Of a stretch of 64,000 bases of DNA, positions 31,461 to 60,237 are shown piece after piece. Location: NCBI RefSeq assembly GCF_030013205.1, contig NZ_CP122648.1; one strand, 5' to 3'. The notes beneath the pieces were generated by a model. The model did not search any database, was not told the DNA's origin, and saw nothing but the letters and a program-made list of their open reading frames with translations. Both the position numbers and the translations under genes were made by a program. The DNA comes from Escherichia coli (lineage in GTDB: Bacteria; Pseudomonadota; Gammaproteobacteria; Enterobacterales; Enterobacteriaceae). How positions within the stretch are numbered: the stretch's first letter is position 1; the number at the start of each line of letters is the position of its first letter.

Positions 31461-31475
31461 CGCACCATACCGCAT

Positions 31476-34109: not shown

Positions 34110-34115
34110 AAAACC

Positions 34116-36208: not shown

Positions 36209-36236
36209 TACGAAATTTATAAGTTGAAACTTAAAA

Positions 36237-36572: not shown

Positions 36573-36580
36573 TTGTAACG

Positions 36581-37608: not shown

Positions 37609-37782
37609 ATGAGAAAAGCCAGCGTGAAACCTGTTTTACTCGCTCGTGATCAGATTGAAGCATTACAGCGCATCCAGGACGAGGAACGCCGCAATTCTCC
37701 GCTGGGGATTGCTCCGAGCATTCATGAGGTCGCCCGGCGTTTAATGCAGCGGGCGCTTTATCCCGTAGAACGTCCGGCCTGA
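37609..37782 (+). CDS. hypothetical small protein (57 aa)
   Basis: ATG at 37609, 9 nt after an AGGAG RBS; ORF track 37585..37782. Confidence 0.45.
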   Translation: MRKASVKPVLLARDQIEALQRIQDEERRNSPLGIAPSIHEVARRLMQRALYPVERPA

Positions 37783-37821
37783 TGGTCGTGATTTTTTGGT
37801 GAAAAAAGAGAGGTGGTAAAA

Positions 37822-38400: not shown

Positions 38401-38464
38401 AAAACGTGCTGATTTCAGCCCTGCCGGATTTGGCGGGGCTTATTGATTATAACCGGGTGACATT

Positions 38465-39762: not shown

Positions 39763-39826
39763 ATGTAAAAACAGCAGCTCAGTTTCGTGAGCTGCTCAAA
39801 TTCAAAAATCCCGCAGGAGTATTGTA

Positions 39827-41866: not shown

Positions 41867-41917
41867 TTTAAATACACGCGCTTTCCGGCGCATTAATACA
41901 GTCTGAGGGGAAGTGTC

Positions 41918-42445: not shown

Positions 42446-42451
42446 CCTCAA

Positions 42452-42732
42452 AAAGTGTCAAGTTGAGCAGCTTGCCAGGTTGACACTTTACACTCTGAAC
42501 GCGAAAAAGTGTCAACCTCGCTGTAAGCCCCGCCATTACTGGCCTTTCGCCAGATTTACCACGTCAAAAAGCCGAAAAAATCGCGAAAAGTGTCAAGTTG
42601 CCATGCTTAGAAATGCTAAGGTTTGATAAGGTTTTTCGCGAAAAAGTGTCAAGTGTGTCAACCTGCGATGTTAAGATTTGTTAAGGTCTTAAGCCGGAAA
42701 GTGTCAACCAGCCCCCTAAGATTTCCTAAGGT
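42452..42732. repeat. array of AAAGTGTCAA direct/inverted repeats interleaved with TAAGATTT-nn-TAAGGT motifs
   Basis: AAAGTGTCAA at 42452, 42506, 42587, 42643, 42698; inverted copy 42480-42489; TAAGATTTnnTAAGGT at 42673 and 42717. Confidence 0.75.
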
Positions 42733-42739
42733 GTAAACC

Positions 42740-42919
42740 ATGACCATCACCGAAGCCGATTTGCTGGAGATGATCCGCAGCATTGCCGGAATCAAACAAC
42801 CAGCAAGCAAAATTAACAGGTGTTCAGCGCCTGTTTCCGTTGTGCTGCAGCAGGAACGCCACCAGCATGATGATGTGAGGCCGTATCAGTGGCGGAAACC
42901 GGACAGGCCGCGACGGTGA
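42740..42919 (+). CDS. hypothetical small ORF (59 aa)
   Basis: ATG after an AAGGTG RBS just downstream of the repeat array; below the ORF-track size cutoff. Confidence 0.3.
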   Translation: MTITEADLLEMIRSIAGIKQPASKINRCSAPVSVVLQQERHQHDDVRPYQWRKPDRPRR

Positions 42920-43385
42920 GCGGAACGTTCGGTAAGGCTACAGCCAAGCCAAACATTAAGCCTACGGGTAACCCTTCGAAGGGGCTTTAAAGGGGAGATG
43001 ATTATCCTTACCAGTTGATAAACAAGCAAACCTCAAATTTGAGGTTTGTATCTGCCTGACTTATTTTTGTGCTAAGTTGTTGATATATCCGACGACACAA
43101 ATTTGCGTTCTGTGGCTGGTGGTGGCGAGTTACGACCGATCATTTCCTTCCTGGCAGGTTACATCCTGCTGCTCAACTACTACGGTAGCCACTACGATTA
43201 ACTACGCGATGCCGATATGGGGATTCCCATATCGGTTTATCCGTGATCATCCACCAGCTTGATCACGGTTAACAGGGGATGTGTAATCCCCAAGCGAGTG
43301 ATAAATGTGTATAGAAATGTGTATAGAATTTATTTTAGAACTCGCGAATGCGCCTTTATTACTGGCCTTGTGGCTTGTTGTATTG

Positions 43386-43403
43386 TTCCCTTCGCCCGCT
43401 CCA
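43386..43403 (+). repeat. att direct repeat (18-bp copy of the glyU 3' end) at the island 1 / island 2 junction
   Basis: TTCCCTTCGCCCGCTCCA is identical to tRNA positions 29148-29165. Confidence 0.85.
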
Positions 43404-43900
43404 GAATCTCCCCAGGTGGAGAAGACTAAAAAAGTCTTCTCTGTCAGCAACTTAAACAGTTACCTATTTAATTTGCTTAGGAGTTCTACCATTGTGATCC
43501 GCCCTTAGTAACTGTCACGTTAAGTTACTCGGTGAGATGACAGTATAACCTAACGTTGGCGGCAGTTGCACCTCTCACACCGCGATAGCACAACGTGAAG
43601 ATAAAGCCCATCCTGGCATTGTAATGTCATCGACAGACTGAACACACGCATTTAAGCCCGATGTGCGGCCTTGTGGCTGCGTAAACAGGTTTATGGTGAT
43701 ATTGGTCCTTGCAAACCATATGCAAGCTCTATCAGCGTTTCAGCCACGCTCCCAACGGGTACACGGTTATCCTGATAAGGTGTGATCTTTCTGACAATCT
43801 GATGAAGTCGCTACGCTCCCGCTTGTTGCTGTATCACCAACGGGGCTTTATGGTTTCTATTGTCTATAATAATCTCACAATTCCCCTGCATGAGGTTGAT

Positions 43901-44107
43901 ATGACTGTTAGCTACAAGATTACTTATGAGCATAGAGACGGTGATCAAATTAGAATGGAAGAGGTTTTATTCCATTCAGAGCATGAACCAACAAAAGATG
44001 AAATTCATGATGCAGTAAGAAAAGATACTGTGAGATTTAATTCTCCATCTAATGGAGTAACGGCTGTTTCAGGGTTTAAAGTGATTTCGGTTGTCCCTGT
44101 TCCATGA
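43901..44107 (+). CDS. hypothetical small protein (68 aa)
   Basis: ATG at 43901 after a GAGG RBS; ORF track lists a longer 43709..44107 frame. Confidence 0.5.
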   Translation: MTVSYKITYEHRDGDQIRMEEVLFHSEHEPTKDEIHDAVRKDTVRFNSPSNGVTAVSGFKVISVVPVP

Positions 44108-44140
44108 ATGGTTATAGAAGGGGCTGGAAGCCCCTAATTA

Positions 44141-44461
44141 TTACTTCTTAATATCGCCAGTGCATTGATATTCGATAGTCACAAGTGTTTGCATACAACC
44201 AGATGAAGAAGGTTGTGAACATTGAGAAGTGAATCCACCAAAAGGCTCGGCTCCTGAATATCCCCAAGCGGCACAACGCGCTTTGGCTGCATTCATGCCT
44301 TGTTGTGGATCTACAACAGGACTTTCAAACATACCGTAAGAATAACTCATCCTAACTGTGCCGTCTGATTTGCTTCCACCAGTTGGAACGAGTTGTTTTT
44401 TTGTTGCACATCCAGAAATAATCAATGTTGAAGCAAGTAACAGCATTAAACTTTTGCGCAT
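44141..44461 (-). CDS. small lipoprotein (106 aa), Cys-rich
   Basis: Signal peptide with lipobox LIISGC; convergent with the upstream gene across a GGGGCT-GGA-AGCCCC hairpin (44117-44131). Confidence 0.7.
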   Translation of the reverse strand: MRKSLMLLLASTLIISGCATKKQLVPTGGSKSDGTVRMSYSYGMFESPVVDPQQGMNAAKARCAAWGYSGAEPFGGFTSQCSQPSSSGCMQTLVTIEYQCTGDIKK

Positions 44462-45113
44462 GTAAATAATCCCAAGAGATAATGGTTATGTATTGATTTA
44501 AAGCGTTTTTAGATTAATGCATTAACTTAGCAAAATTAAGTCTTTTCTGATTGTTTGCAGAGTAAAAATGAGTTGCTTTCGAAATTATTTCGGATGTTTA
44601 TTGTATTACGGTTTTTCAAACCGTCTAACTATTGTCGCTATTGAATGGGCAATAATAGCAAGAGGATTCATTTCGTCATTGGAGGCAACAAAAAGTCGGT
44701 AACTGATAGCTACAACGAATGAAACAATAACGAGAAAGCGGATAGTGCTAAGATGTTTTGAAGATAAATGCATAACGCCCCCTAAATGAATGTGAGGGGG
44801 ATTAAATCATGCAAATTTGTTGTGTGCAATACTGGTAATTTATCCTAATAGTCTACTATTCACCTCAATCTACGTCAACCAATATTTGATGTAGATTTGA
44901 TTTTCTTTTAAAAACAATATGTTGCAATTTGTTGGGTTTTGGGGTTAGGTTGTTTTTTGGACGTTTCCATCAAGTGTAAAGATACGTTTAGCCTTCATAG
45001 TGAGTTCAGTTACTGTCTTTTTCTCTGAAATCGGCGCATACGTGATCATCGCTTAACGAGAAGATCAGCGCCGTCAGGTCCATGCAGCGACAATTCTGAA
45101 ATATCAGGAGGCA

Positions 45114-45665
45114 TTACGCTTCCTGCTCTTTCTTGATACGTTGCACCGTCTGTGTGCTGACACTGAAATCTTTTGCTACGCTCCGAATTGATCCACCATT
45201 CGCGAGAGCGGCAACAATTCCCGCTCGATCAATTGCTTTTCCATTACCACGTTTTGCTATACGCCCAGCTGCCTTAGCTGCGGCGATCCCTTCACGTTGA
45301 CGCTCAAGCATCATTTCACGTTCCATTTGTGCCACTGCTGCAAGCACTGTGAGCATCATATTCCCTGCGGGAGAGTTCTTCCCTGTCTTAAAGTCTTCTT
45401 TATGGAAATGCACAGACACGCCGCGCTCTGTTAATTGCTCAACCGTTGCCAGAAGGTCGGCTGTATTACGGCAAAGGCGATCAATACTGTGAACATGCAA
45501 AACATCACCTTCCCGCACATAGTTCATCATTGCCTCAAACTGTGGGCGCTGGGTATTCTTGCCTGACGCTTTATCTTCAAAGACTTTATCAAGAGCTACT
45601 CCAGCTAATTGACGGTCTGTGTTTTGTTGCACAGTCGATACCCTAATGTATCCAATATTAGCCAT
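45114..45665 (-). CDS. serine recombinase (resolvase/invertase family)
   Basis: 183-aa ORF; N-terminal IGYIRVSTVQQ with catalytic Ser; C-terminal HTH (SIRSVAKDFSVSTQTVQRI). Confidence 0.85.
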   Translation of the reverse strand: MANIGYIRVSTVQQNTDRQLAGVALDKVFEDKASGKNTQRPQFEAMMNYVREGDVLHVHSIDRLCRNTADLLATVEQLTERGVSVHFHKEDFKTGKNSPAGNMMLTVLAAVAQMEREMMLERQREGIAAAKAAGRIAKRGNGKAIDRAGIVAALANGGSIRSVAKDFSVSTQTVQRIKKEQEA

Positions 45666-46166
45666 TTTCTTTATTCCTTCTGTGTTGATTTGTGTGTAGT
45701 GATTATTGATCGTGTTGATTAGGTGTGTAAAGGACTTTTTTCACTACGAAATTCGAAGGTTTTTAGTGTGGTGATTTAGCCTGCTTTATCACTACACGTC
45801 TTGCATGAGAATCATGTAGTTACGTTTTGGTAAAATTAGCAAGCTATTAAATAGTGTGTTTATTTTGAAAAAATAATTTTTTGTTGCATTAAAGAAAACT
45901 TGTTCGACAAATAATAGATTGATTTTTAATCAATAATTTCTGATAGTGCTCTGTAAGCCGCATTACACAAGGCTTTGCGAAAGTGATGTAAAAGTGAAGA
46001 AAGTAAGAATTGCACTTTTAAGCTACTTTTCATTGAATTTTTAGTATGGAATTACACAGGGATTAATCATCAATTACATTGAATTTAAGCCTGTTTTAGA
46101 TGTTTAATTTTGGTAGCAAGAAACACTTTTAGAAGATCATTGCACAGATGTTATGTGATAAATGGA

Positions 46167-46325
46167 TGTAACGATGGGTTACATTCAGCTATCTGAAATA
46201 CTCTCTGTAAGAAATTTGGTAGTAACGATTCGTTACATAGACTAATTATTGAATGTAACGATATTACACATCGGTAGTAACGATACGTTACATCGGCAGA
46301 TGATTGGTTGTAACGAAAGGTTACA
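46167..46325. repeat. five palindromic sites TGTAAC-n5-GTTACA (and GTAACGA-n-TCGTTAC variants)
   Basis: Sites at 46167-46183, 46223-46237, 46254-46268, 46276-46290, 46309-46325 inside a 1.7-kb non-coding AT-rich region. Confidence 0.75.
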
Positions 46326-47357
46326 CAATAAGACTAACATCTATAATACTAATAATAAAACTAACTATTAAACTATATAATATAATTCTTTTTTATCTTT
46401 ATAAGAATAATTATAGGGATACCCGTTAGGGAGTCTAACGACTATCCCTTAATCTATTGGCATTCGCCAGAACCTTGCACAAGTTAGAGTGTTAGTCGTT
46501 AGACTGCTTGTCATAACACATAGTTTTTGTTTGTTGATGTTAGTTAGTAGATCTATGTTCGCTTTCCGCTCACAACGAATATGTAATCTACTATGTGCAA
46601 ATAGCCTACGGCTTGCGTAAGGCTAAATAGTCTTGCGCTGTGCGCAGAACGATAATTAACTAACTACCATCTAACGATCATCAATCATCTAAAATAAATT
46701 TCTTGTGCAATGTTCTTGCGAATGCAATTAGGGTAGCGTTACCCCTTTGGGGATGCTAACGCATAACTATAGATCAACCATCAAACAGACAAAAAAGAAA
46801 AATATGGTTTAAAGATGTTAGGTAGTAGATGAGTTTCTACCGCTTAAATCAAGCCGTAGGCGAGCTAAACGTATATAAGGTAGGGAAACACTTAGCGGTA
46901 ATAGATTAGCTCGTTATAGAGATTCTGAGGAGCTTTACAGGTATTTTATAAGGTGTCTGAAATTAGATTTTATCTACCATCACCTTTTCATATACCTAAC
47001 AAATACAAAATAAGCACCTTAAATAAGCCTCTGGCGAGCTAAACGGTCATTACATAAGGGAATGTATTGTTTTTATCAAAACCTCGTTAGAACGCGTTTT
47101 AGAGCGTTATTAGACAATAATGAAGAATAGCACTACACAGGAGAGCACGAATTGCTAAGACAAATTATAAATTGCTGAAATAGATCGGATTTTTTGCAAA
47201 ATGGTATTGACAAATGTCTCTTTCTGTGCAATAATAGGTATTAGAGGGACAGAAAACATTCTTATCCTCTAAGTAATTAAACCAATGCACCGCACTTTGA
47301 GCCGTCAGGCTGCAAGGTGTCTTTTTCTTTTAACCAAATAGAATAGGAGGTTAATTA

Positions 47358-47540
47358 ATGAAATATTTCACTCCACAGGATGTAGTAGAAGCCTGGAAAC
47401 GTGGTGAGATCAATCGTTTTAAAGTAAGGATGAACAGGAACACAGCGCGACGCTGTGGTTATCCAGAGCGTGAAAAATGTTTTGACGATGCACTAAAAAT
47501 TATTGATGAACTGCGTAAGGCAGAAGTAGAGAAAGAATAA
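47358..47540 (+). CDS. hypothetical small protein (60 aa)
   Basis: Strong AGGAGG RBS; ORF track. Confidence 0.65.
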   Translation: MKYFTPQDVVEAWKRGEINRFKVRMNRNTARRCGYPEREKCFDDALKIIDELRKAEVEKE

Positions 47541-47561
47541 TAACAGGAGAAGGAGAAAACT

Positions 47562-47729
47562 ATGAGCGAAACTAAGAAACCAATTCCGCGCACTTACCTA
47601 CACGTTGACCCTGAAATCTTCAAGGTTTTATTTGCTGAAGCCAAGAAAAGGCAAATTATGGTCAGTGATTTGATGTTAGAAATCATTACTGAAGCAGCAG
47701 AGAACATCAAACAAAAAAAGGGTAAGTGA
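47562..47729 (+). CDS. ribbon-helix-helix-like small protein (55 aa)
   Basis: Manual translation MSETKKPIPRTYLHVDPEIFKVLFAEAKKRQIMVSDLMLEIITEAAENIKQKKGK; GGAGAAGGAG RBS; below the ORF-track cutoff. Confidence 0.55.
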   Translation: MSETKKPIPRTYLHVDPEIFKVLFAEAKKRQIMVSDLMLEIITEAAENIKQKKGK

Positions 47730-47782
47730 TCCTCATTCACTTTAGTAGCGCATTAAGCGTGATTTATAAGGAGATAATTCTA

Positions 47783-48463
47783 ATGTCTAAAATTAAATTG
47801 ATTCGTGAAAAATACCAGTATGTTGATAAACAAACAGGAGAAATTAAAGACAGAACTTTGAATATACCACACTACTTTTGTGAGATTGAATTCATCTACT
47901 CCTCAAATATTGAGGATGGAAAAGCGAAGTTTAGTGCAGAAATGCAAAAATTATATTGCTATGTTTCAGATTGGGAGAAATCAGGGGGGATATGTTTTGA
48001 AACACAAACGAAGTTAAGTAAAGTTTGTGGCTGTAGCCGTAAGACAGTTAATGAATTGATTGGTCTTATGATTAAAATCGGTCTTTTAGAAGAGGTCGGA
48101 GAACGAATCCCAAAACGTCCTTTAAAATTACGTGCGCTACTTCTCACAGATGCACATATTACTCCCCCTGGAGAATCATCACTACCTGATCCTTCTGAGA
48201 AAGAAGACGAATCTAATGAAATATTGAATGTTTCCGAAATCATCCTTGAAGAAGAAACACAAGAGCCAGAGTTCCCTGAGCGGCCCGAAATTTTTACTTG
48301 GCTTCTTTCCCTTGATAAGAAGAAACCACCGCACGAAGAAACAGAAGATTTTGTAAAACGTGCATTAGATTCAAAGAATATCTATCTTGAGAAACAGGCT
48401 TTTCACGATCTGATAATATCTCTAAGAGAAAAAAGTGAAATATACGATTCAATACCATTCTAA
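47783..48463 (+). CDS. winged-HTH protein (226 aa), possible replication initiator or regulator
   Basis: AAGGAG RBS; HTH-like TQTKLSKVCGCSRKTVNELIGLMIKIGLLEE; acidic C-terminal half. Confidence 0.65.
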   Translation: MSKIKLIREKYQYVDKQTGEIKDRTLNIPHYFCEIEFIYSSNIEDGKAKFSAEMQKLYCYVSDWEKSGGICFETQTKLSKVCGCSRKTVNELIGLMIKIGLLEEVGERIPKRPLKLRALLLTDAHITPPGESSLPDPSEKEDESNEILNVSEIILEEETQEPEFPERPEIFTWLLSLDKKKPPHEETEDFVKRALDSKNIYLEKQAFHDLIISLREKSEIYDSIPF

Positions 48464-48472
48464 GGAGAATAA

Positions 48473-48742
48473 ATGACTTATAACATCACTATAGGAAACA
48501 AAACTATTGAAATAACTGAAAGCGGATACAACATTTTAAAAGCTATTTTGGAAATAGAGTTCTCACCGCCGACAGTGGTTAGCTTTTGTAGTTTAGGCGG
48601 CTACAGCGCACAACACGTGAATCATTGGTTAAACCATTTTACATCGTTCGGTGTGCTGGATTATGAAGGGATTAACAGCACTACATTTCGTCTTTTGAAA
48701 TTAAACAAAGATTTTGAATTGTTTATCACAAACAATCAATAA
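48473..48742 (+). CDS. hypothetical protein (89 aa)
   Basis: AAGGAG RBS; ORF track. Confidence 0.6.
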   Translation: MTYNITIGNKTIEITESGYNILKAILEIEFSPPTVVSFCSLGGYSAQHVNHWLNHFTSFGVLDYEGINSTTFRLLKLNKDFELFITNNQ

Positions 48743-48838
48743 CAACAGATCGGGCAATACATATGGCAAATGCATTTATGGCGATATTCATTGTAACAAT
48801 GGTATCAAGTTTTTATAATCCACATAAAAAGAGGGAAA

Positions 48839-49222
48839 ATGGGAAGAAAGAAAAAGAACAACTTAAAACGTATTGAAAAAAACAGTAACTTCAATTCAAC
48901 AAGACAACGTCCACCGACACACACCAATAACGAAATTCCAGGGGAAGAGATAATATTTATTCTTGAAACAGAATCCCCTGAATTAAGCGATGAAGAATTA
49001 GAAATAATCCAGTCAATGCCAGGCGTTTACTTTCGCCCAAGAACAAGAAAACAAACTATCATTTCTGATGGCACTCTGAAACGTTGGCAGCTTTTAGGGT
49101 TTAGCTCCTATCATCATTTTTTGGGATTTAACGCTTTCAATAATTGTGTAGGTGGTGCATCGGAAGTCGATCTGATGGCTCATTTAGAAGATACATTAGC
49201 TTCTAACAAACGTTCTAACTAA
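48839..49222 (+). CDS. hypothetical protein (127 aa)
   Basis: AGAGGG RBS; ORF track. Confidence 0.6.
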   Translation: MGRKKKNNLKRIEKNSNFNSTRQRPPTHTNNEIPGEEIIFILETESPELSDEELEIIQSMPGVYFRPRTRKQTIISDGTLKRWQLLGFSSYHHFLGFNAFNNCVGGASEVDLMAHLEDTLASNKRSN

Positions 49223-49237
49223 TAAAATGATGGGAGT

Positions 49238-49510
49238 ATGTATAAGCGCCCAATGAAAATAATCGAAAAAGGAAAAATAATGATTAACTATCAACTATTA
49301 GAAACAACATTTTTTAAAGAAGCAAAACAACTTGCAGAAGTGTTTATTTCACTGGCTGAACGAGCAAAAGAAGAAAATGATTTTGCCTTGCTTGATGATG
49401 TGCTGGATGACATTGCAACCTATCGTATACCGCTACAGATTGCACTAAACAAGGCTAAACAGATTCAGCAAGAGATGGAATCAGCAGATCAAGGAGAGAT
49501 TGCACAATGA
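49238..49510 (+). CDS. hypothetical protein (90 aa)
   Basis: ORF track; 4-nt overlap with the next gene. Confidence 0.55.
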   Translation: MYKRPMKIIEKGKIMINYQLLETTFFKEAKQLAEVFISLAERAKEENDFALLDDVLDDIATYRIPLQIALNKAKQIQQEMESADQGEIAQ

Positions 49511-49815
49511 CAGACAACATTCTGGAAGTTATGGACACTCTTTCGGATCGGATGATCGCCCTACAGACACGTATCAATCAAGCCTATTCAGATTTATGCG
49601 ATTACACGCTCTCTCAATGCGTTAGTAGCTTAATGAAGGTGAATGTAAGCCTTGACGATTTCATCTCTCTGGTGAGCGATTTAGAGCTATCTAAGGACGA
49701 TGTCAGGCTGTGTACTCAAACCATCACAGACACCGCCAGCACGTTAAAGGCTGCAAGTGAAGAGATTCAGCAATTAGTAGATGATTTAGCAAAAAGTGCT
49801 ATTTTCTCCAAATGA
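49507..49815 (+). CDS. hypothetical protein (102 aa)
   Basis: AAGGAG RBS; ORF track. Confidence 0.6.
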   Translation: MTDNILEVMDTLSDRMIALQTRINQAYSDLCDYTLSQCVSSLMKVNVSLDDFISLVSDLELSKDDVRLCTQTITDTASTLKAASEEIQQLVDDLAKSAIFSK

Positions 49816-50807
49816 TAATGAAAATCATTTGCATTTATAACGATTTCATTATATAATGATATTAGGGGTAGATAAAAAGGTTTTGACTGGTGTTAATCCT
49901 TCTACTGTCATAAATCCCTGCATATGGAAGGTGATAGCCTCAAGGGTTGAGTGGCATTAACCTCTAACAAATATTACCTTCCATCTCTCAAGAAGTTTTA
50001 GAATAATCATAACTCCCTCTTTGATTGTTGATTGTTTCTACGTTGTGTTGATGAATGTTGTTAGGCATTGTGCTTAATTTTGATAAAAGCGGGTAGGTGT
50101 TATCTCCTTGCCCTTCCCGCTCTTATTTTTCATCTATGCTTATCCTAAAGCTCCTTATTTTGTCCGAAAACATTAAAGAGCCTTACACTGATAGTTATAT
50201 TTTATAACTATTTACTAACATCATTAAACTCTTATTTAATGACAGAAGTTAGTAACAGAATAATCTATTAAGTTGTTGTCAAAAAACTATCATCTGCATA
50301 GCGTTAGCCGCAAGTAGAGAGAGTTTAGTTAAGAATGGTGCAATAAACTTTGGAAATATTGATAGCAAAACTAGTTTTATAGAATGCGGATCTATAATCT
50401 TTGGTTGTAAAAACGATTTTCTGAAACGGTAGATTACTGTTGGTGTAGTTAATCCTTATTAAAAATTTAATCTGTGAGTAGATTGGAATAGTGATTCCTT
50501 AAAATCTGACTGGTGCATCCACACCATGAAAGATAGCAGTTGGCCACCGCGCCCCGAATAGATATTCCTGATTGATTCCGCATGTTTTCCTAAGAGCATG
50601 TTTTCAGGAATATCTGTTCACCCTTTAAACCTATCTTTAAGCATGTTTAATAAGCATTCTTAGAGATACGTTTAAAACCTCCTCAAGGTTTTACTTATCG
50701 CTGTGTATTGCCCGACACGTTAATAAATCCCCCTCGCTATTGTCAGATTGAACCTCTTATAGCCTGGGGGATTTATTAAATTCCAGCATAATGGAATCGT
50801 TATATAA

Positions 50808-51017
50808 ATGAAACAAGAAATTATCCTGAAATATGGCAATGAAAAGTTAACACTAACTGAAGATGTGTTGAATGCTACAGCCTACGCGCTTGGCATCACT
50901 CCCACAGAATTAAAGAAACAGTGTGAACGTCTTTATAAGGCTGAAAGCAATAAACCATCTCACCAAGATTTGATTAATGCTAAAGCTCAACAAATCAAAC
51001 AATCTAAGGAAAAATAA
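50808..51017 (+). CDS. hypothetical small protein (69 aa)
   Basis: ORF track; stop overlaps the next start (TAATG). Confidence 0.5.
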   Translation: MKQEIILKYGNEKLTLTEDVLNATAYALGITPTELKKQCERLYKAESNKPSHQDLINAKAQQIKQSKEK

Positions 51018-51391
51018 TGGCTATTTTAAAATTAAGCGATGTTTTCCCACATCGTAAAAGCATCACTGACGTAGTGAGCTATGCAACCGACCCTTACGCG
51101 GCTGTAGAAAGCAAAAAATTTGCAGCACTTGCACAAGATGTAACGTGCGGCGACCTCATTGATTCATCCGGCGCTAAATATGTTAGCGGCGCTGATGTTC
51201 TTGTCGTTGTGTCTGACTTCGTAACTGCTGATTCAAATAAAACAGTTAACGTGCTTCGTGCTAATGCCGGACTCGTTTGCATCAAAGCTGATGCCCTGAA
51301 TGCCGAAGGCGCTGTAAAAGAAGCTGCTATTGCAGCTCTCGCTGCTAAAGGCTTCCAGCTTGAAGGCTTCCACTCTGTTTTCACATCTTAA
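51017..51391 (+). CDS. putative phage head decoration-like protein (124 aa)
   Basis: Position directly upstream of a major-capsid-like gene, as for lambda D/E; the assignment rests on context only. Confidence 0.45.
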   Translation: MAILKLSDVFPHRKSITDVVSYATDPYAAVESKKFAALAQDVTCGDLIDSSGAKYVSGADVLVVVSDFVTADSNKTVNVLRANAGLVCIKADALNAEGAVKEAAIAALAAKGFQLEGFHSVFTS

Positions 51392-51407
51392 GAAGGAATA
51401 AATAATA

Positions 51408-52436
51408 ATGATTATCGGAAATGAAGTGGTTGATCTTGCTCCACTGTTCGAATTAAACGACTCACGCAATTACCTACTGTCTACTCTGGATTTTACTGAT
51501 CCTGTGCCTGTAGAAAGTCACAAAGTGGCTGTTTCCCAGCTTATCGAGAGCAATGAATCTCTGTTCAACCATCCTACAAGCCGTTTTAGCTCTGAGCATA
51601 ACGTTACTAAGCGTGAGAACGGGGAAGAATGGCTGATTGAAATCCCTTACTTCCTGCGTGAAGACCTGATCAAACCGCAGGACGTGCAAGGCAAACGCAA
51701 AGCCGGAAGCTCTATTGAAGAAACACTGCCGGATCTGTATGCGGAATATATCGCTACACACAATGTTGCATTCCAGCGCACTAAAGAAAGCATCCTCGCG
51801 GCTTCTCTGTTCTCTGGCAAGACACATACCCCGAAAACTGACGATGTTCTGATCGACTACAGCACTCTGTTCGGTGTGTCTCCAATGACTGCAACCGTTG
51901 ACGCATCCAGCACCAACACAATGACCGTATTCAAGCAATTTGATCAGATGCATACGGATATGATTGCTAAGGCACAAAGCCAGGCTGCAACCATTGAGCG
52001 TGTTGTTGTGTTCTGTAAACCTGCGGCATTCAACGCTATTCGTTACAGCGTTGGCATGGTTAATGCGTTCCAGTATGCAAGCCCTGTAGACGATGCAAAC
52101 GTGGTGTTTAATGTGCGTTCTCTGCTGCCTGGTGTAACTACTTTCACCATTCCAGGAACTAACATTGACCTGATCAAAGTGACTGATCCGCTGCTGCTGG
52201 CACATATGACCGCTGACGCTGTAGCTATTCCTAAACTTGCTAAGGGGGCAGGTGTTTACCAAGCTATTTTTGGTGCGCCTTCCAGTTCATTCGATCTGCT
52301 GTCTCAAGGCGCTAAAGAGTATTACAGCTATGCTTTCGAATCGAATCGCGGCGACGCAGTGCACGTAGTGACCGAGAATAGCTCGCTTGTGGTTAACCAC
52401 GGTGTTGGCTTCTCTGTGCAGATCACAGTAGCGTAA
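51408..52436 (+). CDS. putative phage major capsid protein, lambda E-like
   Basis: 342 aa (lambda gpE is 341 aa); C-terminus ...GVGFSVQITVA resembles the gpE C-terminus ...DEFVSVQLA; N-terminal DLAPLFEL region. Confidence 0.5.
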   Translation: MIIGNEVVDLAPLFELNDSRNYLLSTLDFTDPVPVESHKVAVSQLIESNESLFNHPTSRFSSEHNVTKRENGEEWLIEIPYFLREDLIKPQDVQGKRKAGSSIEETLPDLYAEYIATHNVAFQRTKESILAASLFSGKTHTPKTDDVLIDYSTLFGVSPMTATVDASSTNTMTVFKQFDQMHTDMIAKAQSQAATIERVVVFCKPAAFNAIRYSVGMVNAFQYASPVDDANVVFNVRSLLPGVTTFTIPGTNIDLIKVTDPLLLAHMTADAVAIPKLAKGAGVYQAIFGAPSSSFDLLSQGAKEYYSYAFESNRGDAVHVVTENSSLVVNHGVGFSVQITVA

Positions 52437-52590
52437 AAAGTGTTAAAGACGTTCCCCTACGTCTGGAAATAATCGGGGCAATAAGGGTAAGGGATAATCA
52501 TATAAGCAAAATATGCGCTGTCTCTTGCACTTTTTGTTTTTCTACTGTCTACAAACCCAAATAAAAATATATATATGTGAGAGAAAACCA

Positions 52591-52788
52591 ATGAATACAG
52601 AAAATTCACAGGCATTAATTCTTAAATCTGTAAAAGAACTGGCAGCTATTAGCGATGACTCAATAATCAATGTCAGTGCCTTATGCAGAATGCTTTCAAT
52701 TGATGCAAATAATGTGCGGCAGCGTGTGTTTCAGACTGGATGCAGCACTTTTGAAGCAATTACATACTACTGTTCTAAAAAACAATAA
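52591..52788 (+). CDS. hypothetical small protein (65 aa)
   Basis: ATG at 52591 within the ORF-track frame 52513..52788. Confidence 0.45.
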   Translation: MNTENSQALILKSVKELAAISDDSIINVSALCRMLSIDANNVRQRVFQTGCSTFEAITYYCSKKQ

Positions 52789-52822
52789 TAAACAACAATC
52801 ATAATACAGGGAAACAATTAAC

Positions 52823-54646
52823 ATGTTAGAGCTAAACATCAGCCGCTTGTCAAACGTTGTCACCTTCGAAGTTAACCGACCATCATTAGAGAAAGCAAAA
52901 GCAGAAGTAGAAAAACTTCGTAAACAAATGGCGGCGGTGAAAGATATAGAATTGCGTGTTAAGACACATAAACAATCAACCGCTAGAGCAAAAAAAGACG
53001 TAGACGATATTGCTAAAAAGCAAGCACAGGCTGATAAAGCTAATGCTAAAGCACAATTAGCCGCTCAACGTGTAGTTGCAAGAGAACAAAAAGCCCTGGC
53101 AGCACGCAAAGAGAAGGCAGAATTAAAGCTTTTAGACGTTGGATCAAGCATTAGTGCAATGCACCGTCTTTCTGTAGCGGAACAATATAAAGCTATTGCA
53201 CAGGCTAGAGAAATTGCCCTCCAATATGAAAGAGGCGCTATTAGTCTGGCACGTATGAATAGCCAAATGAAACGCCTACAACAGCAACAACGTAAGATTA
53301 ATGGCAATCGTAACGCTCACGCTAAAGCCTATGCACCTGTTAAGGGTAGCGGGAGTATTGGCGGCGGTGCTGCGGCTGTTATGCTGGGTGGCTTAGGCGC
53401 TGGCGCTACGTATATGGCTATGAGCAAAGCCTCTGAATTTATGGCTAATAGCTTTGCGAATGCTGAAACAGAAGGGGAATTAATCCAACGTGCAAGGCTT
53501 GGTGGAGTTGATTACAACTTACTTAATAATCTTGAGCGTTGGGCTTACGATAACGGGATCGATAGCCTCCAGGGTGATCAGGGACGCAGAAAAATACTAG
53601 ATGCCATCGGTAAAGATGTGCGTGAACGTGCAACCAAATCTTATGACGAGGCTGAATATGTAGTCGATAAGAAAACAGGGAAAGGCGAATGGAAGGGCGG
53701 CGATAGCGGCATCAATACTTTAATGAATGAAGGATTCCTAACTAAAAAGGATCTAAAAGACTTTGCTGATAATCCGGCTGGTCTGGTTAGTAAAGCAGTT
53801 CAGGGAATGGTAGCTAAAGGCTATTCAGATGCACAAATCGGTAGTCGTCTGGAAGATCTGGCTGATGATTTGATGCTCACCTCTAAATACTGGACACGCT
53901 CCGCTAAAGAAGTGGAACAATCAGCACGAGAACAACGAGAATCAGGGCGCTGGGTAACGCAGGCACAACAGGAAAGCGTTATTAAATTCCGTGAACTGAA
54001 TAATGCACTTAGTGGGCTTTCTGACTCACAAGGGATCGCCTTTGTTGATGGCTTTATGAAATCTCTTGATCCGAAAGTGATTGAAGAGTTTAAAAAGAGC
54101 ATGGTTGCAATGCTGCCAATGTTTACCAAATTAGGCGAGGCTATCGGCGGATTGGTTAACGCTGTAATGAAAGCAATCAACTGGCTGATGAAAAACGACG
54201 AGAAGACGGCAGCTATTCAGAAGAATTTAGGTGATGCACCGCCACTATCTAACGAAGGAATGAAGCAGAATCTTTCTAATCTCACTCCTGATCAATATAA
54301 AGGCGCTGGCACCGGAACAACTAAGCCAGATAACAGCAATTCCCTGGTTAACACTATTAAAAGCTGGTTTATGCCAGAAGAAACGGTAGGTGGGGCGCAG
54401 GCTGTAAATCAATACAGTCTCGAAGGACAAAACATTGCAAATCTGAAACAGAGTGCAGCACAACAAGCTTTCAAGGCTCCTTCTTACACCTTTGCACCTG
54501 TTATTAACTTCAATCCAGAATTACAAGTAAATGCAGAAGTGCCGCTAACTATCGAATCAGACACCGGACGATTGAGCGAATTTATCGACTTCAAATCAAA
54601 GGCATCTTCCGCTGAGTTTAGCAAGCTATTTAGACTGGCCCCCTGA
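52823..54646 (+). CDS. tape-measure-like protein (coiled-coil plus glycine-rich hydrophobic segment); 3' end truncated by IS2
   Basis: 607-aa ORF; N-terminal coiled coil; [25 protein letters not shown]; the last 5 codons and the stop come from the IS2 left end. Confidence 0.6.
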
Positions 54647-54721
54647 ATCTCCAGACAACCAATATCACTTAAATAAGTGATAGTCTTAATACTAGTTTTT
54701 AGACTAGTCATTGGAGAGCAG

Positions 54722-55087
54722 ATGATTGATGTCTTAGGACCGGAGAAACGCAGACGGCGTACTACACAGGAAAAGATCGCTATTGTTCAGCAGAGTTTTG
54801 AACCGGGAATGACGGTCTCCCTTGTTGCCCGGCAACACGGTGTGGCAGCCAGCCAGTTATTTCTCTGGCGCAAGCAATACCAGGAGGGAAGTCTTACTGC
54901 TGTGGCCGCAGGAGAGCAGGTCGTTCCTGCCTCTGAACTTGCTGCTGCCATGAAGCAGATTAAAGAACTCCAGCGCCTGCTCGGCAAAAAAACGATGGAA
55001 AATGAACTCCTTAAAGAAGCCGTTGAATACGGGCGTGCAAAAAAGTGGATAGCGCACGCGCCCTTATTGCCCGGGGATGGGGAGTAA
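54722..55087 (+). CDS. insC: IS2 transposase OrfA (InsC)
   Basis: [41 protein letters not shown]... matches IS2 InsC. Confidence 0.9.
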
Positions 55088-55950
55088 GCTTAGTCAGCCG
55101 TTGTCTCCGGGTGTCGCGTGCGCAGTTGCACGTCATTCTCAGACGAACCGATGACTGGAAAGATGGTCGCCGCAGCCGTCACTCAGATGATACGGATGTG
55201 CTTCTCCGTATACACCATGTTATCGGAGAGCTGCCCACGTATGGTTATCGTCGGGTATGGGCGCTGCTTCGCAGACAGGCCGAACTTGATGGTATGCCTG
55301 CGATCAATGCCAAACGTGTTTACCGGATCATGCGCCAGAATGCGCTGTTGCTTGAGCGAAAAACCGCTGTACCGCCATCGAAACGGGCACATACTGGCAA
55401 AGTGGCCGTGAAAGAAAGCAATCAACGATGGTGCTCTGACGGGTTCGAGTTCCGCTGTGATAACGGAGAAAAACTGCGAGTCACGTTCGCGCTGGACTGC
55501 TGTGACCGTGAGGCACTGCACTGGGCAGTCACTACGGGCGGCTTCGACAGTGAAACAGTACAGGACGTAATGCTGGGAGCGGTGGAACGCCGCTTCGGCA
55601 ACGAGCTTCCGGCGTCTCCAGTAGAGTGGCTGACGGATAATGGTTCATGCTACCGGGCTAATGAAACACGGCAGTTTGCCCGGATGTTGGGGCTTGAACC
55701 GAAGAACACGGCGGTGCGGAGTCCGGAGAGTAACGGCATAGCAGAGAGCTTCGTGAAAACGATAAAGCGTGACTACATCAGTATCATGCCTAAACCAGAC
55801 GGGTTAACGGCAGCAAAGAACCTTGCAGAGGCGTTCGAGCATTATAACGAATGGCATCCGCATAGTGCACTGGGTTATCGCTCGCCACGGGAATATCTGC
55901 GGCAGCAGGCCAGTAATGGGTTAAGTGATAACAGGTGTCTGGAAATATAG
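55045..55950 (+). CDS. insD: IS2 transposase OrfB (InsD), DDE catalytic domain
   Basis: 301-aa ORF overlapping orfA in the -1 frame; IS3-family integrase core. Confidence 0.9.
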
Positions 55951-56050
55951 GGGCAAATCCACTATTAACGCTGGGTGTTATGTCAGGCGGGTCAACCTAT
56001 TAATCATCACTGTGGGGCGGTTTAGCCCCCTTAAATAAGGATTACAAATT

Positions 56051-56728
56051 ATGGCAATGGGTCCGTTAACCATTGGTCGCCCGACTGAGGCGAAAATCAA
56101 CAGCACAAGCAACGATAGCAACGGTAGAACAACCAAAGGGGGTAACGGCTTTGCGATCATTACCTCTAATCTCGGCAGTGGTGCAAATGCTGCTTACAAT
56201 GACTACCAGGCATTATCATTTGATAGCGTGGAATCGACGAAAGTTAGCAGAAATGCGGACGTTACAAGCTATGCCGTCGAATCAGGATCAGAAGTTAGTG
56301 ATCATGTTCAAATACGGAATAACAAGTTCACATTACAAGGGCGTATCTCTGAAACCGTATTGAAGCTCAATCCCGATATGATTAAGAATGCGGGAATTAA
56401 CGGCAATCGACGTATGCTTATGCTTGAATACCTAAATCAGTTGATGGACAGTCGCCAACCTTTCCTACTTGTCACTGAGTTAAAAAATTATGACAACGTT
56501 GTGTTAGTTGGCATGTCTTACGAAGAAGAAGCAAGCGAAAGCCTATTGTTTACTCTTGATTTTGAGCAAATCCGTCTTGTCTCTAAAGCAACTACAAGCG
56601 CAATTGCGGTAAAAACAGCACCAAATAAATCTGTAGGAGGTCAGGTTAAAATGCAGGTAAATACAACAGAACAGAAAAATCAAAAAAGCCCAGGGCAAGA
56701 CGTTGTAACGCCAGTATTTAAACAATAG
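56051..56728 (+). CDS. hypothetical protein (225 aa)
   Basis: AAGGA RBS; ORF track; immediately downstream of the IS2 insertion. Confidence 0.6.
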   Translation: MAMGPLTIGRPTEAKINSTSNDSNGRTTKGGNGFAIITSNLGSGANAAYNDYQALSFDSVESTKVSRNADVTSYAVESGSEVSDHVQIRNNKFTLQGRISETVLKLNPDMIKNAGINGNRRMLMLEYLNQLMDSRQPFLLVTELKNYDNVVLVGMSYEEEASESLLFTLDFEQIRLVSKATTSAIAVKTAPNKSVGGQVKMQVNTTEQKNQKSPGQDVVTPVFKQ

Positions 56729-56821
56729 CCTTAAACACCTATGAAACGCTCTATAACGAGATAATCATAAAAGAGGCATCAATCTATATTGAAGCCTCTT
56801 TATTACGTCTATGGCGTTGTT

Positions 56822-58042
56822 TTACGCCTTAAAATCAATATTTAATTCATATCTTACTAATTCTACATATTCAGCTAATTCTGGAATGCTTGCCCCTTGT
56901 GAGTAGGTGCGAAAGGCTTCTGTTTTGGCTTTTTGCTCAGTGTGGCCCGTAATACTGCCGATCCTGGTCTCGCTAACTCCGGCACGATCAAGACAAGTGA
57001 TAAACATCCCGCGCAAGCTGTGAAAGCATTGTCTATCTGTAGCGATTGGCAAGACGCTACGACGTAAACGTGAGAATGCTTGAGAATAGAACGGGCCTTT
57101 CTTGCCGTCGATTCTTTTTACTTTGTTCGAGTGAGGGAACAAATATTCACCATAATTATGATTTAAATATTCATCGACAATAATCGATAGTCTCGAATGT
57201 ATCGGAACGTGTCTGATCCCTGCTTTAGTCTTACTCTTGCTGATATAAAAACAGCGTATTCCTTCCACAGTTACAACCTCTGACTTTTTCAGGCTTGCCA
57301 GTTCGTCTAATCTGCATCCTGAAAACAAGCCCATTAAAATAATATTTCTGATCTCCGGCTCCGCTGCATCAAGTAGCTTTTGCATTTGTTCAGGTGTAAA
57401 CGGTTGATAACTCTCGATTGTGCGACGTGCTTCGAGGTTATGACCGTGAAAAGGGTTACTGTCTGGTATTCCGTCATAACGGCGTTTAGCAAATTCATAG
57501 AGCGATCCTAAGCATGTAAGCCAGTTTTGACGAGATTGATCGGCTGCTCCTCGTTGCTTCTGGTCATCTAAGAATACTGTTACAAGCCGTCTGCCTATTT
57601 TCTCAATATGAATATCATCTTTCTGAATGCTTTGTAAAAATAGCTCAACGGCCCTTGCTGATTTCTGTAGTGTTGAGTATGAACGACGCTCTCTGTAGCA
57701 TTCGGCGTATTCGTCACGTATTAAGCATAGGGAAGGCGATGCATAACCGCGTTTTACGGCTCTTTGCGTGTTTTTATTGGCCCTTGCCTCTGAATGTAAG
57801 AATTCAATAGCTTTTTGTAACCTCCTTTCGGGGTTATCAGGATTATGTTTCCGCTTTAGTTCCTCCCATTCTAATAACAGATGGTTTCTGAATCTTCTCG
57901 CCTCATTCAGATCTCGTGTAGATGTGCTTTTTCTCCACAACTTGTAAGGGTAAAGATGGCGTAAGTATTTAGGAACAAAAATCTGAAACATCCAGATCCC
58001 ATCTTTTCTCTTAAATAAGTATGCTTGGCTCTTGATCGACAC
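56822..58042 (-). CDS. tyrosine recombinase / phage integrase
   Basis: 406-aa ORF adjacent to att copy 3; C-terminal HSLRG and tyrosine-containing region; different family from the island 1 integrase. Confidence 0.75.
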   Translation of the reverse strand: MSIKSQAYLFKRKDGIWMFQIFVPKYLRHLYPYKLWRKSTSTRDLNEARRFRNHLLLEWEELKRKHNPDNPERRLQKAIEFLHSEARANKNTQRAVKRGYASPSLCLIRDEYAECYRERRSYSTLQKSARAVELFLQSIQKDDIHIEKIGRRLVTVFLDDQKQRGAADQSRQNWLTCLGSLYEFAKRRYDGIPDSNPFHGHNLEARRTIESYQPFTPEQMQKLLDAAEPEIRNIILMGLFSGCRLDELASLKKSEVVTVEGIRCFYISKSKTKAGIRHVPIHSRLSIIVDEYLNHNYGEYLFPHSNKVKRIDGKKGPFYSQAFSRLRRSVLPIATDRQCFHSLRGMFITCLDRAGVSETRIGSITGHTEQKAKTEAFRTYSQGASIPELAEYVELVRYELNIDFKA

Positions 58043-58127
58043 GATAATGATCCTCTATTATCACGTAATCAGTTACCTATGATTGATCACAAAATCTTTA
58101 TTTTACAGCAGGTTATTATGGGTTTCC

Positions 58128-58150
58128 TCGATTCCCTTCGCCCGCTCCAA
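58128..58150 (+). repeat. att direct repeat (23-bp copy of the glyU 3' end) at the distal island boundary
   Basis: TCGATTCCCTTCGCCCGCTCCAA is identical to 29144-29166. Confidence 0.85.
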
Positions 58151-58381
58151 TTTATCTTCACCTCATCAACCTGCCATTTTTGTTGTATCTGATTTTCTAT
58201 ATTATCTTAATTCAATCGCTTCAGACTTTTCGCAATCGCCGTAATACTTCCCCATTTTTTTGTAAATAAAAGCGTTTACGCAATGCAATCCATTTGTAAC
58301 AACCCAGGTAAAATACCTTATTTTCAAGTTGTTAAATAAGTGGTTATCTACGCTTTTAACAAACGATTGATGGAATCTTTT

Positions 58382-59992
58382 ATGAAAGGGAAATCTACAT
58401 TAACTCTTCTGCTCGCTGGTATATTTTCATGCGGCACATGCCAGGCGACAGGGGCAGAAGTGACGAGTGAATCTGTATTTAACATTCTTAATTCCACGGG
58501 GGCAGCAACTGATAAAAGTTATTTATCGTTAAATCCAGATAAGTATCCTAATTATCGTCTTCTGATTCACTCAGCCAAATTAAAAAATGAAATAAAGAGC
58601 CACTATACCAAAGACGAAATTCAAGGATTGTTAACATTAACAGAAAATACACGAAAGTTAACGTTGACGGAGAAACCCTGGGGAACATTTATTCTTGCTT
58701 CTACTTTCGAAGATGACAAAACAGCGGCAGAAACCCACTATGATGCTGTCTGGCTGAGGGATAGTTTATGGGGCTATATGGCATTAGTATCAGATCAAGG
58801 AAATAGTGTAGCCGCAAAAAAGGTTCTGCTCACTCTGTGGGATTATATGTCTACGCCCGACCAGATTAAGCGGATGCAGGACGTCATTAGCAACCCAAAA
58901 CGACTGGATGGTATTCCTGGGCAAATGAATGCTGTGCATATCCGATTTGACAGCAACTCCCCCGTGATGGCAGATGTGCAGGAAGAAGGCAAGCCGCAGC
59001 TGTGGAACCATAAACAAAATGATGCGTTAGGTCTTTATCTTGATCTCCTTATACAAGCAATCGACACTGGTACTATTAACGCTGAAGATTGGCAAAAAGG
59101 TGACCGATTAAAATCGGTTGCGCTGCTGATTGCTTATCTGGATAAAGCCAATTTCTATGTTATGGAAGATTCCGGAGCGTGGGAAGAAGATGCCAGATTA
59201 AACACATCTTCCGTTGCACTGGTGACCTCTGGACTGGAACGTTTGTCGAACTTACTCTCGAAGAAAGACTCTGTTTTTATCTCTGATTTACTGCGCGAAG
59301 CTAAAGCCAATGAACTGGATGAACCTCTTTCAACAACGAGGTTGAACCACCTCATAGATAAAGGTTATGAAAGAATAACGCTACAACTTGATTTAGGGGG
59401 AGAATCCCCAGGTTATCTGGAAAAAGATAAACATTACAGAGAAGCCGATGCGGCTTTACTTAATGTTATTTATCCTGCAAATCTTTCAAAGATAAATACC
59501 AGAAGAAAAGAGCAAGTTCTAAAAATAGTTAAAAAACTAGCAGGTCCGTATGGTATAAAAAGATACGAGAAGGATAATTATCAGTCGGCAAATTTTTGGT
59601 TCAATGATATTAAAACTGATACCGATCAAAATTCACATGCGAAAAGAGAAAAGTGCTTCATTCCATCAACAGAAGCAGAATGGTTTTTTGACTCATGGTA
59701 TGCAAAATCAGCAGCAATTGTTTATAAAGAATCAAGAAAAGAAGAGTATTTGAATGACTCAGTGCAATTTATGAATAGATCATTGGCCCAAATAACAGGC
59801 GAGAATATGATTGGTGCAAATGGCAGGAGCGTACCTGAAATGGCACTTCCCGAAAGCTATAACTATATCCACAAGTCGGGAACTTTGCATGAAGCGCCAA
59901 GCCCTATCATTCCGCTAAATTGGTCGAAAGCTTCAATGACTCTCATGTTGAAAGAGATGTCCAACCTTATCAATGATGAGGGAAATAAATAG
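58382..59992 (+). CDS. glycoside hydrolase family 15-like lipoprotein (ygeQ-like, apparently full length)
   Basis: Signal peptide MKGKSTLTLLLAGIFSCGTCQA; GH15-type SGAWEE catalytic motif; alternative upstream starts at 58340 and 58370. Confidence 0.7.
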   Translation: MKGKSTLTLLLAGIFSCGTCQATGAEVTSESVFNILNSTGAATDKSYLSLNPDKYPNYRLLIHSAKLKNEIKSHYTKDEIQGLLTLTENTRKLTLTEKPWGTFILASTFEDDKTAAETHYDAVWLRDSLWGYMALVSDQGNSVAAKKVLLTLWDYMSTPDQIKRMQDVISNPKRLDGIPGQMNAVHIRFDSNSPVMADVQEEGKPQLWNHKQNDALGLYLDLLIQAIDTGTINAEDWQKGDRLKSVALLIAYLDKANFYVMEDSGAWEEDARLNTSSVALVTSGLERLSNLLSKKDSVFISDLLREAKANELDEPLSTTRLNHLIDKGYERITLQLDLGGESPGYLEKDKHYREADAALLNVIYPANLSKINTRRKEQVLKIVKKLAGPYGIKRYEKDNYQSANFWFNDIKTDTDQNSHAKREKCFIPSTEAEWFFDSWYAKSAAIVYKESRKEEYLNDSVQFMNRSLAQITGENMIGANGRSVPEMALPESYNYIHKSGTLHEAPSPIIPLNWSKASMTLMLKEMSNLINDEGNK

Positions 59993-60000
59993 TTTTCATA

Positions 60001-60237
60001 ATGAGGCGGTCCTGGATTAAAAGGACCGCTCAAAGAGAAATCGTAAGGGAGGTAAAAGTGATCAATAAATTACTGTTAGCTTACCTGATAGGTCTGGTTG
60101 TGACATCGACCTTAATATTTATCTTCTCGGAAGAAAAAGTAACATATCGGTTGTTTGCTGCAGTAATTACAGGGTTGACCTGGCCGCTTAGCCTCATTCC
60201 ATCCATCATAAGTCTCATGATTCGTAAATCCGACTAA
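60001..60237 (+). CDS. small membrane protein (78 aa)
   Basis: ORF track; two predicted hydrophobic helices. Confidence 0.45.
   Translation: MRRSWIKRTAQREIVREVKVINKLLLAYLIGLVVTSTLIFIFSEEKVTYRLFAAVITGLTWPLSLIPSIISLMIRKSD

Follow-up and report, generated by a model that had tools for sequence, protein, structure and literature searches.

A 64,000-nucleotide stretch of Escherichia coli DNA (hereafter the window) carries a copy of the insertion sequence (IS) IS2 within the 3′ end of a gene whose product resembles the tape measure proteins (TMPs) of tailed phages. We consider it very likely that this copy reflects a recent transposition of an active IS2 in the ancestry of the porcine enterotoxigenic E. 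coli (ETEC) strain ETEC4079, whose chromosome (NZ_CP122643.1) is 100% identical to the window over positions 52000-58300 (6.3 kb). In outline, an active IS2 copy would have entered the 3′ end of the TMP-like gene of an integrative island of ~13.4 kb at glyU, in the immediate ancestry of ETEC4079 and after its split from near-clonal porcine ETEC strains. The event is ordinary IS2 transposition, already known biology, and the element is already in RefSeq as an IS3-family transposase. The insertion provides a strain-specific marker by which ETEC4079 can be told apart from porcine ETEC isolates that are otherwise nearly identical, and it demonstrates current IS2 activity in this lineage. The features at the insertion are the following.

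52823..54630, plus strand: native part of the tape-measure-like gene, codons 1-602 plus 2 nt (open reading frame and homology).
54626..54630, no strand: left copy of the 5-bp target-site duplication, CTATT; single CTATT in the empty site of strain K_EC180.
54631..55961, plus strand: IS2 isoform, 1331 bp; 95.8% identity to K-12 IS2A, with 56 substitutions and no indels.
55962..55966, no strand: right copy of the target-site duplication, CTATT, paired with the left copy; single in the empty site.
55967..56003, plus strand: orphaned 3′ end of the tape-measure-like gene, which together with CTATT encodes LTLGVMSGGSTY and a stop; the motif is conserved.

The initial annotation had described an IS2 flanked by a CTATT duplication, and this is what we find. 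The element of 1331 bp lies at 54631-55961, begins with TAGACTGGCCCCC, ends with GGGGCAAATCCA and is bordered on both sides by CTATT (54626-54630 and again 55962-55966), the repeat being exactly five bases long, as the sixth base differs (GCTATT versus ACTATT). The insertion made the staggered 5-bp cut usual for IS2 and thereby duplicated CTATT; as a member of the IS3 family, IS2 moves by a copy-out/paste-in route via a minicircle.

That the CTATT pair is not a chance match of two 5-mers is documented by a pair of filled and empty sites. Eleven other pig isolates, including K_EC180, ETEC1748, ETEC4067-4071, ETEC4075, EC556, EC571 and EC581, match both flanks at 100% yet are without exactly 1336 bp. 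In K_EC180 the empty site, ...AGCAAGCTATTAACGCTGG..., contains CTATT once; BLAST against this strain gives two segments whose overlap is precisely the 5-bp duplication, and the K_EC180 gene is annotated as an intact 614-residue coding sequence (WP_063118533.1). A single place covering at least 80% of the 6.3-kb query was found in only one of 5426 complete E. coli genomes, that of ETEC4079. Because the insertion occurs in this one genome and near-clonal sister strains show the empty site, it is recent, as had been proposed. Across the 22.7 kb shared by K_EC180 and the window there are just one substitution and two single-base indels. These indels are frameshifts in K_EC180 island genes that are intact in ETEC4079 (L001:8136-8465 and L001:11019-11392, the window counterparts of the genes being 47783-48463 and 51017-51391), and they may be real mutations or homopolymer sequencing errors.

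The IS2 copy is intact, possessing both inverted repeats (left, IRL; right, IRR), both reading frames and the frameshift site through which these are joined. It lies in the same direction as the gene it interrupts, and its parts are as follows.

54631..54672, plus strand: IRL, 42-bp left inverted repeat (alignment of IRL with IRR, 42 versus 41 bp).
54722..55087, plus strand: IS2 orfA, InsC-like, 121 residues, HTH_Tnp_1 (Pfam PF01527, E 1.8e-19).
55039..55045, plus strand: A6G (AAAAAAG) −1 programmed frameshift motif joining orfA and orfB; annotated by PGAP as a joined coding sequence.
55045..55950, plus strand: IS2 orfB frame, InsD-like, DDE/rve catalytic domain (Pfam rve, PF00665, E 8.5e-20).
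55921..55961, plus strand: IRR, 41-bp right inverted repeat with an outward-facing −35-like TGGAAA hexamer (alignment of IRL with IRR).

The two ends align over 42 and 41 nt with one gap, confirming imperfect terminal repeats of the IS2 type that end in ...CA-3′, for which lengths of 42 bp (IRL) and 41 bp (IRR) have been described (PMC3299598). A −1 frameshift at A6G yields an OrfAB fusion of 409 residues, and the orfB frame also matches rve_3 (PF13683, E 1.7e-18) and HTH_21 (PF13276, E 4.8e-11). RefSeq/PGAP names the product "IS3 family transposase, programmed frameshift" (WP_089541817.1). Transposition of IS2 proceeds through a figure-of-eight and a minicircle bearing the junction promoter Pjunc (PMC3299598), for which the −35 in IRR has been described (PMC3299598, PMC9330008); the corresponding sequence elements, TGGAAA in IRR and TAGACT in IRL, are both present in this copy.

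The insertion removes the C-terminus of the TMP-like protein. The interrupted open reading frame (ORF; 52823-54646) encodes 607 residues and reads ...SKL|FRLAP*, its foreign FRLAP tail being ended by a TGA at 54644-54646 within IRL (IS2 nucleotides 14-16), so that the stop lies 16 nt into the element. In-silico removal of 54631-55966 regains a 614-residue ORF ending in ...SKLLTLGVMSGGSTY, with its stop at 56001-56003; the net change is thus the loss of 12 native codons and the gain of five IS-encoded ones, in agreement with the initial suggestion that the 607-residue ORF is clipped and about 12 codons are restorable. We looked for homologues that end naturally at the IS2 site and found none, whether among four diverged alleles from E. 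coli, at 24 loci in IMG/VR or in the TMPs of two phages; every complete homologue examined continues past the site and keeps the motif. Alleles at 95%, 84% and 62% protein identity all extend beyond it and end in LTLGVMSGGSTY or LTLTSLSGQSNGG, as do 20 of 20 complete IMG/VR homologues in reaching past the site, and the two phage TMPs end in the same kind of motif (...QSLTLQTLSGQSNSN and ...QRLSLSTLSGQSNTGG). The clipped residues, LTLGVMSGGSTY, constitute a C-terminal motif, LTLxxxSGxS, conserved from island to phage, and this motif and the first ~26 residues are the best-conserved stretches between the island and phage proteins. The C-terminus of a tailed-phage TMP is held in the tail tip or baseplate hub, in the tube-initiator complex. 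Because the lost motif is conserved and TMP C-termini are anchored in this way, the truncated protein is probably impaired.

The designation of the gene as tape-measure-like, also made in the initial annotation, is justified by homology and gene order. The 614-residue protein aligns with PHROG 16051 ("tail length tape measure protein"; E 1.2e-29) up to the end of the profile. A Pfam search found no domain in it, a TMP domain included, and so the identification rests on PHROGs, phage homology and synteny. By tblastn its sole phage relatives are rV5-like myoviruses of ~145-150 kb (Phapecoctavirus, Justusliebigvirus), several of which are annotated as encoding a tape measure at this locus, with E values of 3e-23 to 1e-40 for the Phapecoctavirus TMPs. 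The 651-residue protein of phiWec188 (BDU13174.1) aligns over residues 1-612 of the 614 (E 1e-40); WMI32668.1 of iGC_PHA_EC001, annotated as a TMP, also aligns and sits between a tail assembly chaperone gene and a Dit-like gene; and phi92 gp134 (PDB entry 21vq) matches at E 1e-18. We found no relevant literature on phi92 gp134. The gene that follows in the island supports the assignment.

56051..56728, plus strand: tube-initiator (Dit-like) baseplate gene, 225 residues (Pfam Dit_like, E 1.2e-27).

Its product matches phi92 gp135 (E 7e-54), which belongs to PDB entry 21vq as gp134 does, as well as chains named "tube initiator protein", and shares 53% identity with the protein encoded after the TMP in Phapecoctavirus; the order of TMP-like gene and tube-initiator gene is the same in iGC_PHA_EC001 and phiWec188.

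The insertion may also affect this downstream gene. The empty-site allele has 47 nt between the stop of the TMP-like gene and the start of the tube-initiator gene; in ETEC4079 this interval is longer by 1336 bp. A consensus scan found no promoter-like site at 55962-56050, that is, between IS2 and the tube-initiator gene, and we therefore think that expression of this gene is probably reduced by polarity. A wider scan for promoters and terminators over 52.4-56.9 kb gave counts no higher than in shuffled sequence and nothing at the right junction of IS2. The 47-nt spacer itself (56004-56050) holds a GC-rich hairpin, GGGGC-GGTTTA-GCCCC, with no run of T after it, which might serve in mRNA stabilisation or attenuation.

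Several points weigh against this account of the insertion and its effects. IS2 can supply an outward −35 from IRR and so create hybrid promoters (PMC9330008; PMC3299598), and the right junction forms TGGAAA-N17-TATTAA from the IRR hexamer and the duplicated target, with the geometry of an IS2 junction promoter. This candidate, which the scan did not call, has eight of 12 matches and is missing the final T; a hybrid promoter here is possible but would be weak, and we regard it as speculative. Polarity on the tube-initiator gene and loss of function in the truncated protein are both deduced from the sequence, and the functional weight given to the C-terminal motif derives from its conservation. 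The insertion itself is known from the assembled sequence of ETEC4079. Most simply, the insertion would be neutral or slightly deleterious to the island and without consequence for the host cell.

How the insertion should be understood depends in part on the state of the element that received it. This element, which we call island 2, occupies 43405-58150 of the window and measures ~13.4 kb without IS2. Apart from the two genes already described, it is defined by the following features.

43386..43404, plus strand: left end of island 2 at its boundary with island 1, approximate; 18-19-bp copy of the tRNA 3′ end, TTCCCTTCGCCCGCTCCA.
51408..52436, plus strand: major capsid protein (MCP) gene, 342 residues (Pfam Phage_cap_E, E 1.1e-17).
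56822..58042, minus strand: tyrosine integrase, 406 residues, intact ORF (Pfam Phage_integrase, DUF6538).
58128..58150, plus strand: right-end attachment (att) repeat, 23 bp; exact copy of the tRNA-Gly(CCC) 3′ end at 29134-29156, with zero chance matches expected.

Identity with K_EC180, which has the same integrase protein accession, resumes at the ~43386-43404 boundary; the K_EC180 island adjoins the tRNA directly, whereas in ETEC4079 a second island (29157-43404) intervenes.

The initial annotation took the insertion as a mark that island 2 is decaying, a claim that our results do not support as stated. IS2 is the only lesion in the ETEC4079 copy, in which PGAP flags no pseudogene, the integrase ORF is intact and tRNA-derived repeats are present at both ends. 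Pairwise Nei-Gojobori ratios of nonsynonymous to synonymous divergence (dN/dS) fall at 0.15-0.24 in the TMP-like gene and at 0.04-0.11 in the Dit-like gene, where dS reaches or exceeds 1.4, and at 0.07-0.14 in the integrase gene; we conclude that purifying selection acts on the TMP-like and Dit-like genes across the family. One IS hit dates itself and not the state of the island; the fair statement is that individual copies decay within a maintained family.

An alternative is that IS2 is one symptom of an already decaying prophage remnant, in which the structural genes are functionless leftovers and the insertion is inconsequential. Terminase, portal, sheath and tube genes were indeed not found in island 2 by annotation, PHROG or Pfam, and other members of the family are damaged as well: a second, independent IS2 lies 203 bp upstream in the same TMP-like gene in the lineage of E-93 (L003:10605-11936) and EN-1077 (L034), IS5-family elements interrupt the Dit-like gene in O104:H4 (ISKpn26, L006:12421-13401) and EN-1077, IS1A lies within the matched region of strain cM8a, and K_EC180 carries the two frameshifted island genes noted above. 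A random remnant would nevertheless sit uneasily with the same compact gene set and order at two tRNA sites, with different integrases and protein identities of 62-100%, or with the constraint on the TMP-like and Dit-like genes at the divergences just given; in ETEC4079, moreover, only the IS2 target is flagged as broken, and the island still has its integrase and, at each end, a tRNA-derived repeat. We judge this alternative unlikely, if still to be taken seriously. "Prophage remnant" may be the wrong frame, since the family resembles a conserved compact element and not a random leftover.

It is also conceivable that the insertion was selected, either by disabling a costly or toxic tail-protein homologue or by giving the tube-initiator gene transcription derived from IS2. 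What draws attention to this idea is that IS2 has hit the 3′ end of this gene in two lineages, at sites within 203 bp of each other, and that the two insertions are independent, differing in their duplication (CTATT versus GACAA) and by 3 nt of the IS; IS2 is furthermore able to make hybrid promoters via the −35 in IRR (PMC9330008), and TGGAAA-N17-TATTAA is formed at the right junction. The preference of IS2 for locally curved, AT-rich DNA (PMC3299598) could alone explain two hits in a gene of 45% GC, however, the candidate promoter is weak and uncalled by the scan, the ETEC4079 insertion is in one genome alone with no sign of spread, and the gene is intact in most family members (181 genomes with at least 80% coverage). 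Selection for the insertion is accordingly improbable in our view.

That the 614-residue protein is an unrelated coiled-coil or membrane protein seems to us more improbable still. It has no Pfam hit, PGAP names a few RefSeq alleles "flotillin family protein", and for the phage homologues the TMP role is in turn assigned mostly by gene position; yet it matches, end to end, a Phapecoctavirus protein in the canonical slot from chaperone to tube initiator, it matches PHROG 16051, its homologue phi92 gp134 shares a PDB entry with the tube-initiator homologue gp135, and its sequence can be read as a coiled coil at the N-terminus and, after it, a hydrophobic segment rich in Gly and Ala, an arrangement typical of TMPs. 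The flotillin label on some alleles we rejected as a coiled-coil artefact. Finally, we give almost no credence to an assembly artefact in which a repeat was misplaced in the ETEC4079 assembly, for although repeats are a classic source of misassembly and IS2 is multi-copy in this genome (its record has eight matching places), that record is of a finished, circular chromosome, and a misplaced repeat would create no duplication, whereas here a clean 5-bp duplication flanks the element and its removal gives the sister-strain sequence to the base.

A recent IS2 transposition into a maintained island raises the matter of what this island does. Its family, with relatives at loci L001, L003-L006 and L009-L034, comprises elements of ~13 kb integrated at glyU or thrW in E. 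coli, and ~375 of 5426 complete genomes have the TMP-like gene. The family gene order is a serine recombinase, small ORFs, a protein with a helix-turn-helix (HTH) or O-like character, the MCP, a 65-residue ORF, the TMP-like protein, the Dit-like protein and the integrase. The MCP, the TMP-like protein and the tube initiator all have their best phage relatives in large (~145-150 kb) virulent myoviruses, mainly rV5/phi92-like, at identities of ~25%, ~30% and 53%, respectively, and the relative order of these structural genes is the same as in the phage morphogenesis module. For the MCP the single best matches are Klebsiella phages of ~145-150 kb, with Phapecoctavirus close behind. A 124-residue ORF upstream of the MCP was considered as a head-decoration homologue and rejected, being unlike the Phapecoctavirus decoration protein and giving no phage tblastn hit. 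By annotation, PHROG and Pfam, homologues of the chaperone, tube and sheath are absent from the island, where the interval between the MCP and the TMP-like gene holds only the 65-residue ORF; the island's parts alone therefore cannot form a tail for its TMP homologue to measure.

We tentatively suggest, as a possibility that we hold at well below even confidence, that island 2 belongs to an undescribed tRNA-integrating family whose members act either as satellites of virulent rV5/phi92-like myoviruses (Stephanstirmvirinae) or as defence islands against them. It has this look, more than that of a prophage left behind, because homologues of virulent-phage virion proteins are combined with an integrase, att repeats, a replication-initiator-like protein (a weak match) and an array of palindromes, and it is a small integrated element with its integrase at 56822-58042 and flanking tRNA-derived att repeats. 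If the suggestion were correct, the diverged capsid, tape measure and tube initiator could build or re-size particles from helper parts, or could poison helper tail assembly, and the IS2 insertion in ETEC4079 would be a natural knock-out of one of three hijack genes. ETEC4079 and its matched wild-type strains (ETEC4071, K_EC180 and others) provide a natural mutant and wild-type set with which to study island function. Our searches found no paper on satellites of rV5, Phapecoctavirus or Stephanstirmvirinae, nor one describing such an element, and the IMG/VR hits are all predictions from isolate genomes and not virome particles, which makes them uninformative on packaging.

Within the family, the capsid gene shows a mosaic pattern that points to exchange of modules: the allele in ETEC lies near that of the otherwise most distant island, from ST70 (dN 0.23), but extremely far (dN above 1) from those in islands that share a TMP-like gene of 84-95% identity (L005 and L006 compared). 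The palindrome array consists of at least five GTAACG-N4-CGTTAC motifs at 46158-46324, a candidate operator or origin region, and lies within a 1.7-kb stretch without an annotated gene (45666-47357) upstream of the block of small ORFs and regulators. A second gap without an annotated gene, AT-rich and of ~1 kb (49816-50807), is found just upstream of the structural-gene block and contains a 21-nt inverted repeat (50720-50740 and 50759-50779); it had no Rfam hit, and Rfam returned nothing at the gathering threshold across island 2.

On either side of island 2 the window holds other elements. Island 1 (29157-43404, ~14 kb), absent from K_EC180, lies between tRNA-Gly and island 2 in ETEC4079, so that two islands stand in tandem at glyU. 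It encodes a P4-type integrase beside the tRNA, an AntA antirepressor-domain protein, a D5-like primase-helicase, ProQ/FinO and DUF2213 proteins, and it looks like a P4-like or PICI-like satellite. Downstream of island 2, 58340-64000 carries genes for a GH15 glycoside hydrolase and for a toxin of the GhoT/OrtT family, and the ETT2 type III secretion cluster begins there (EivF-like regulator, SctC).

When set beside known satellites that bring structural genes of their own or remodel the virion of the helper (cfPICI, the PLE of Vibrio cholerae, and P4), island 2 is alike in being small and tRNA-integrated and in carrying, besides an integrase and att repeats, a gene resembling replication initiators and counterparts of the virion genes of a specific phage group. 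Its gene content matches none of their hallmark sets (cfPICI, PICI, P4-like or PLE), as PHROG, Pfam and further searches found no portal, protease, terminase or primase, and head-tail adaptors are missing too. With the cfPICI set (MCP, portal, protease, adaptors and small terminase) it shares the MCP only, and it does not match the P4 set (alpha primase, psu, delta and sid). The candidate helper group of island 2 is virulent, as is the case for PLE and ICP1.

The TMP-like protein resembles the TMPs of Phapecoctavirus and phi92-like phages (Stephanstirmvirinae) in its end-to-end homology, in a conserved N-terminus, MLE(L/I)N..(L/I)SNVVTF.V...SL..AK, in a C-terminal LTL/LSL..LSGQS motif and in the position of its gene directly upstream of a tube-initiator/Dit-like gene. 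It differs in being only 25-30% identical to them, in its length (614 versus 651-662 residues) and in being encoded on a 13-kb chromosomal island without genes for sheath, tube, chaperone, portal or terminase.

The insertion itself has two close counterparts. The IS2 of the E-93/EN-1077 lineage is the same isoform (3 nt apart, with the same transposase accession), has the same orientation and likewise sits at the 3′ end of the gene with a 5-bp duplication. It differs in that the duplication is GACAA (x2), that the gene, an annotated pseudogene there, has lost ~80 codons, and that it lies in a 94%-identical variant of the island whose integrase is different. The reference copy, annotated as "insertion sequence:IS2A" in E. 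coli K-12 MG1655 (NC_000913.3), differs from that of ETEC4079 by 56 substitutions, the latter being the isoform that encodes WP_089541817.1, and by its target, which is yaiX and not a tape-measure-like gene in a glyU island. In all other respects compared the two are alike, each being a co-linear element of 1331 bp with identical termini (TAGACTGG...CAAATCCA), an IRL of 42 bp and an IRR of 41 bp, and orfA and orfB joined by the A6G −1 frameshift, and each interrupting a gene, with IS2A carrying its own 5-bp target duplication (ATTAC x2).

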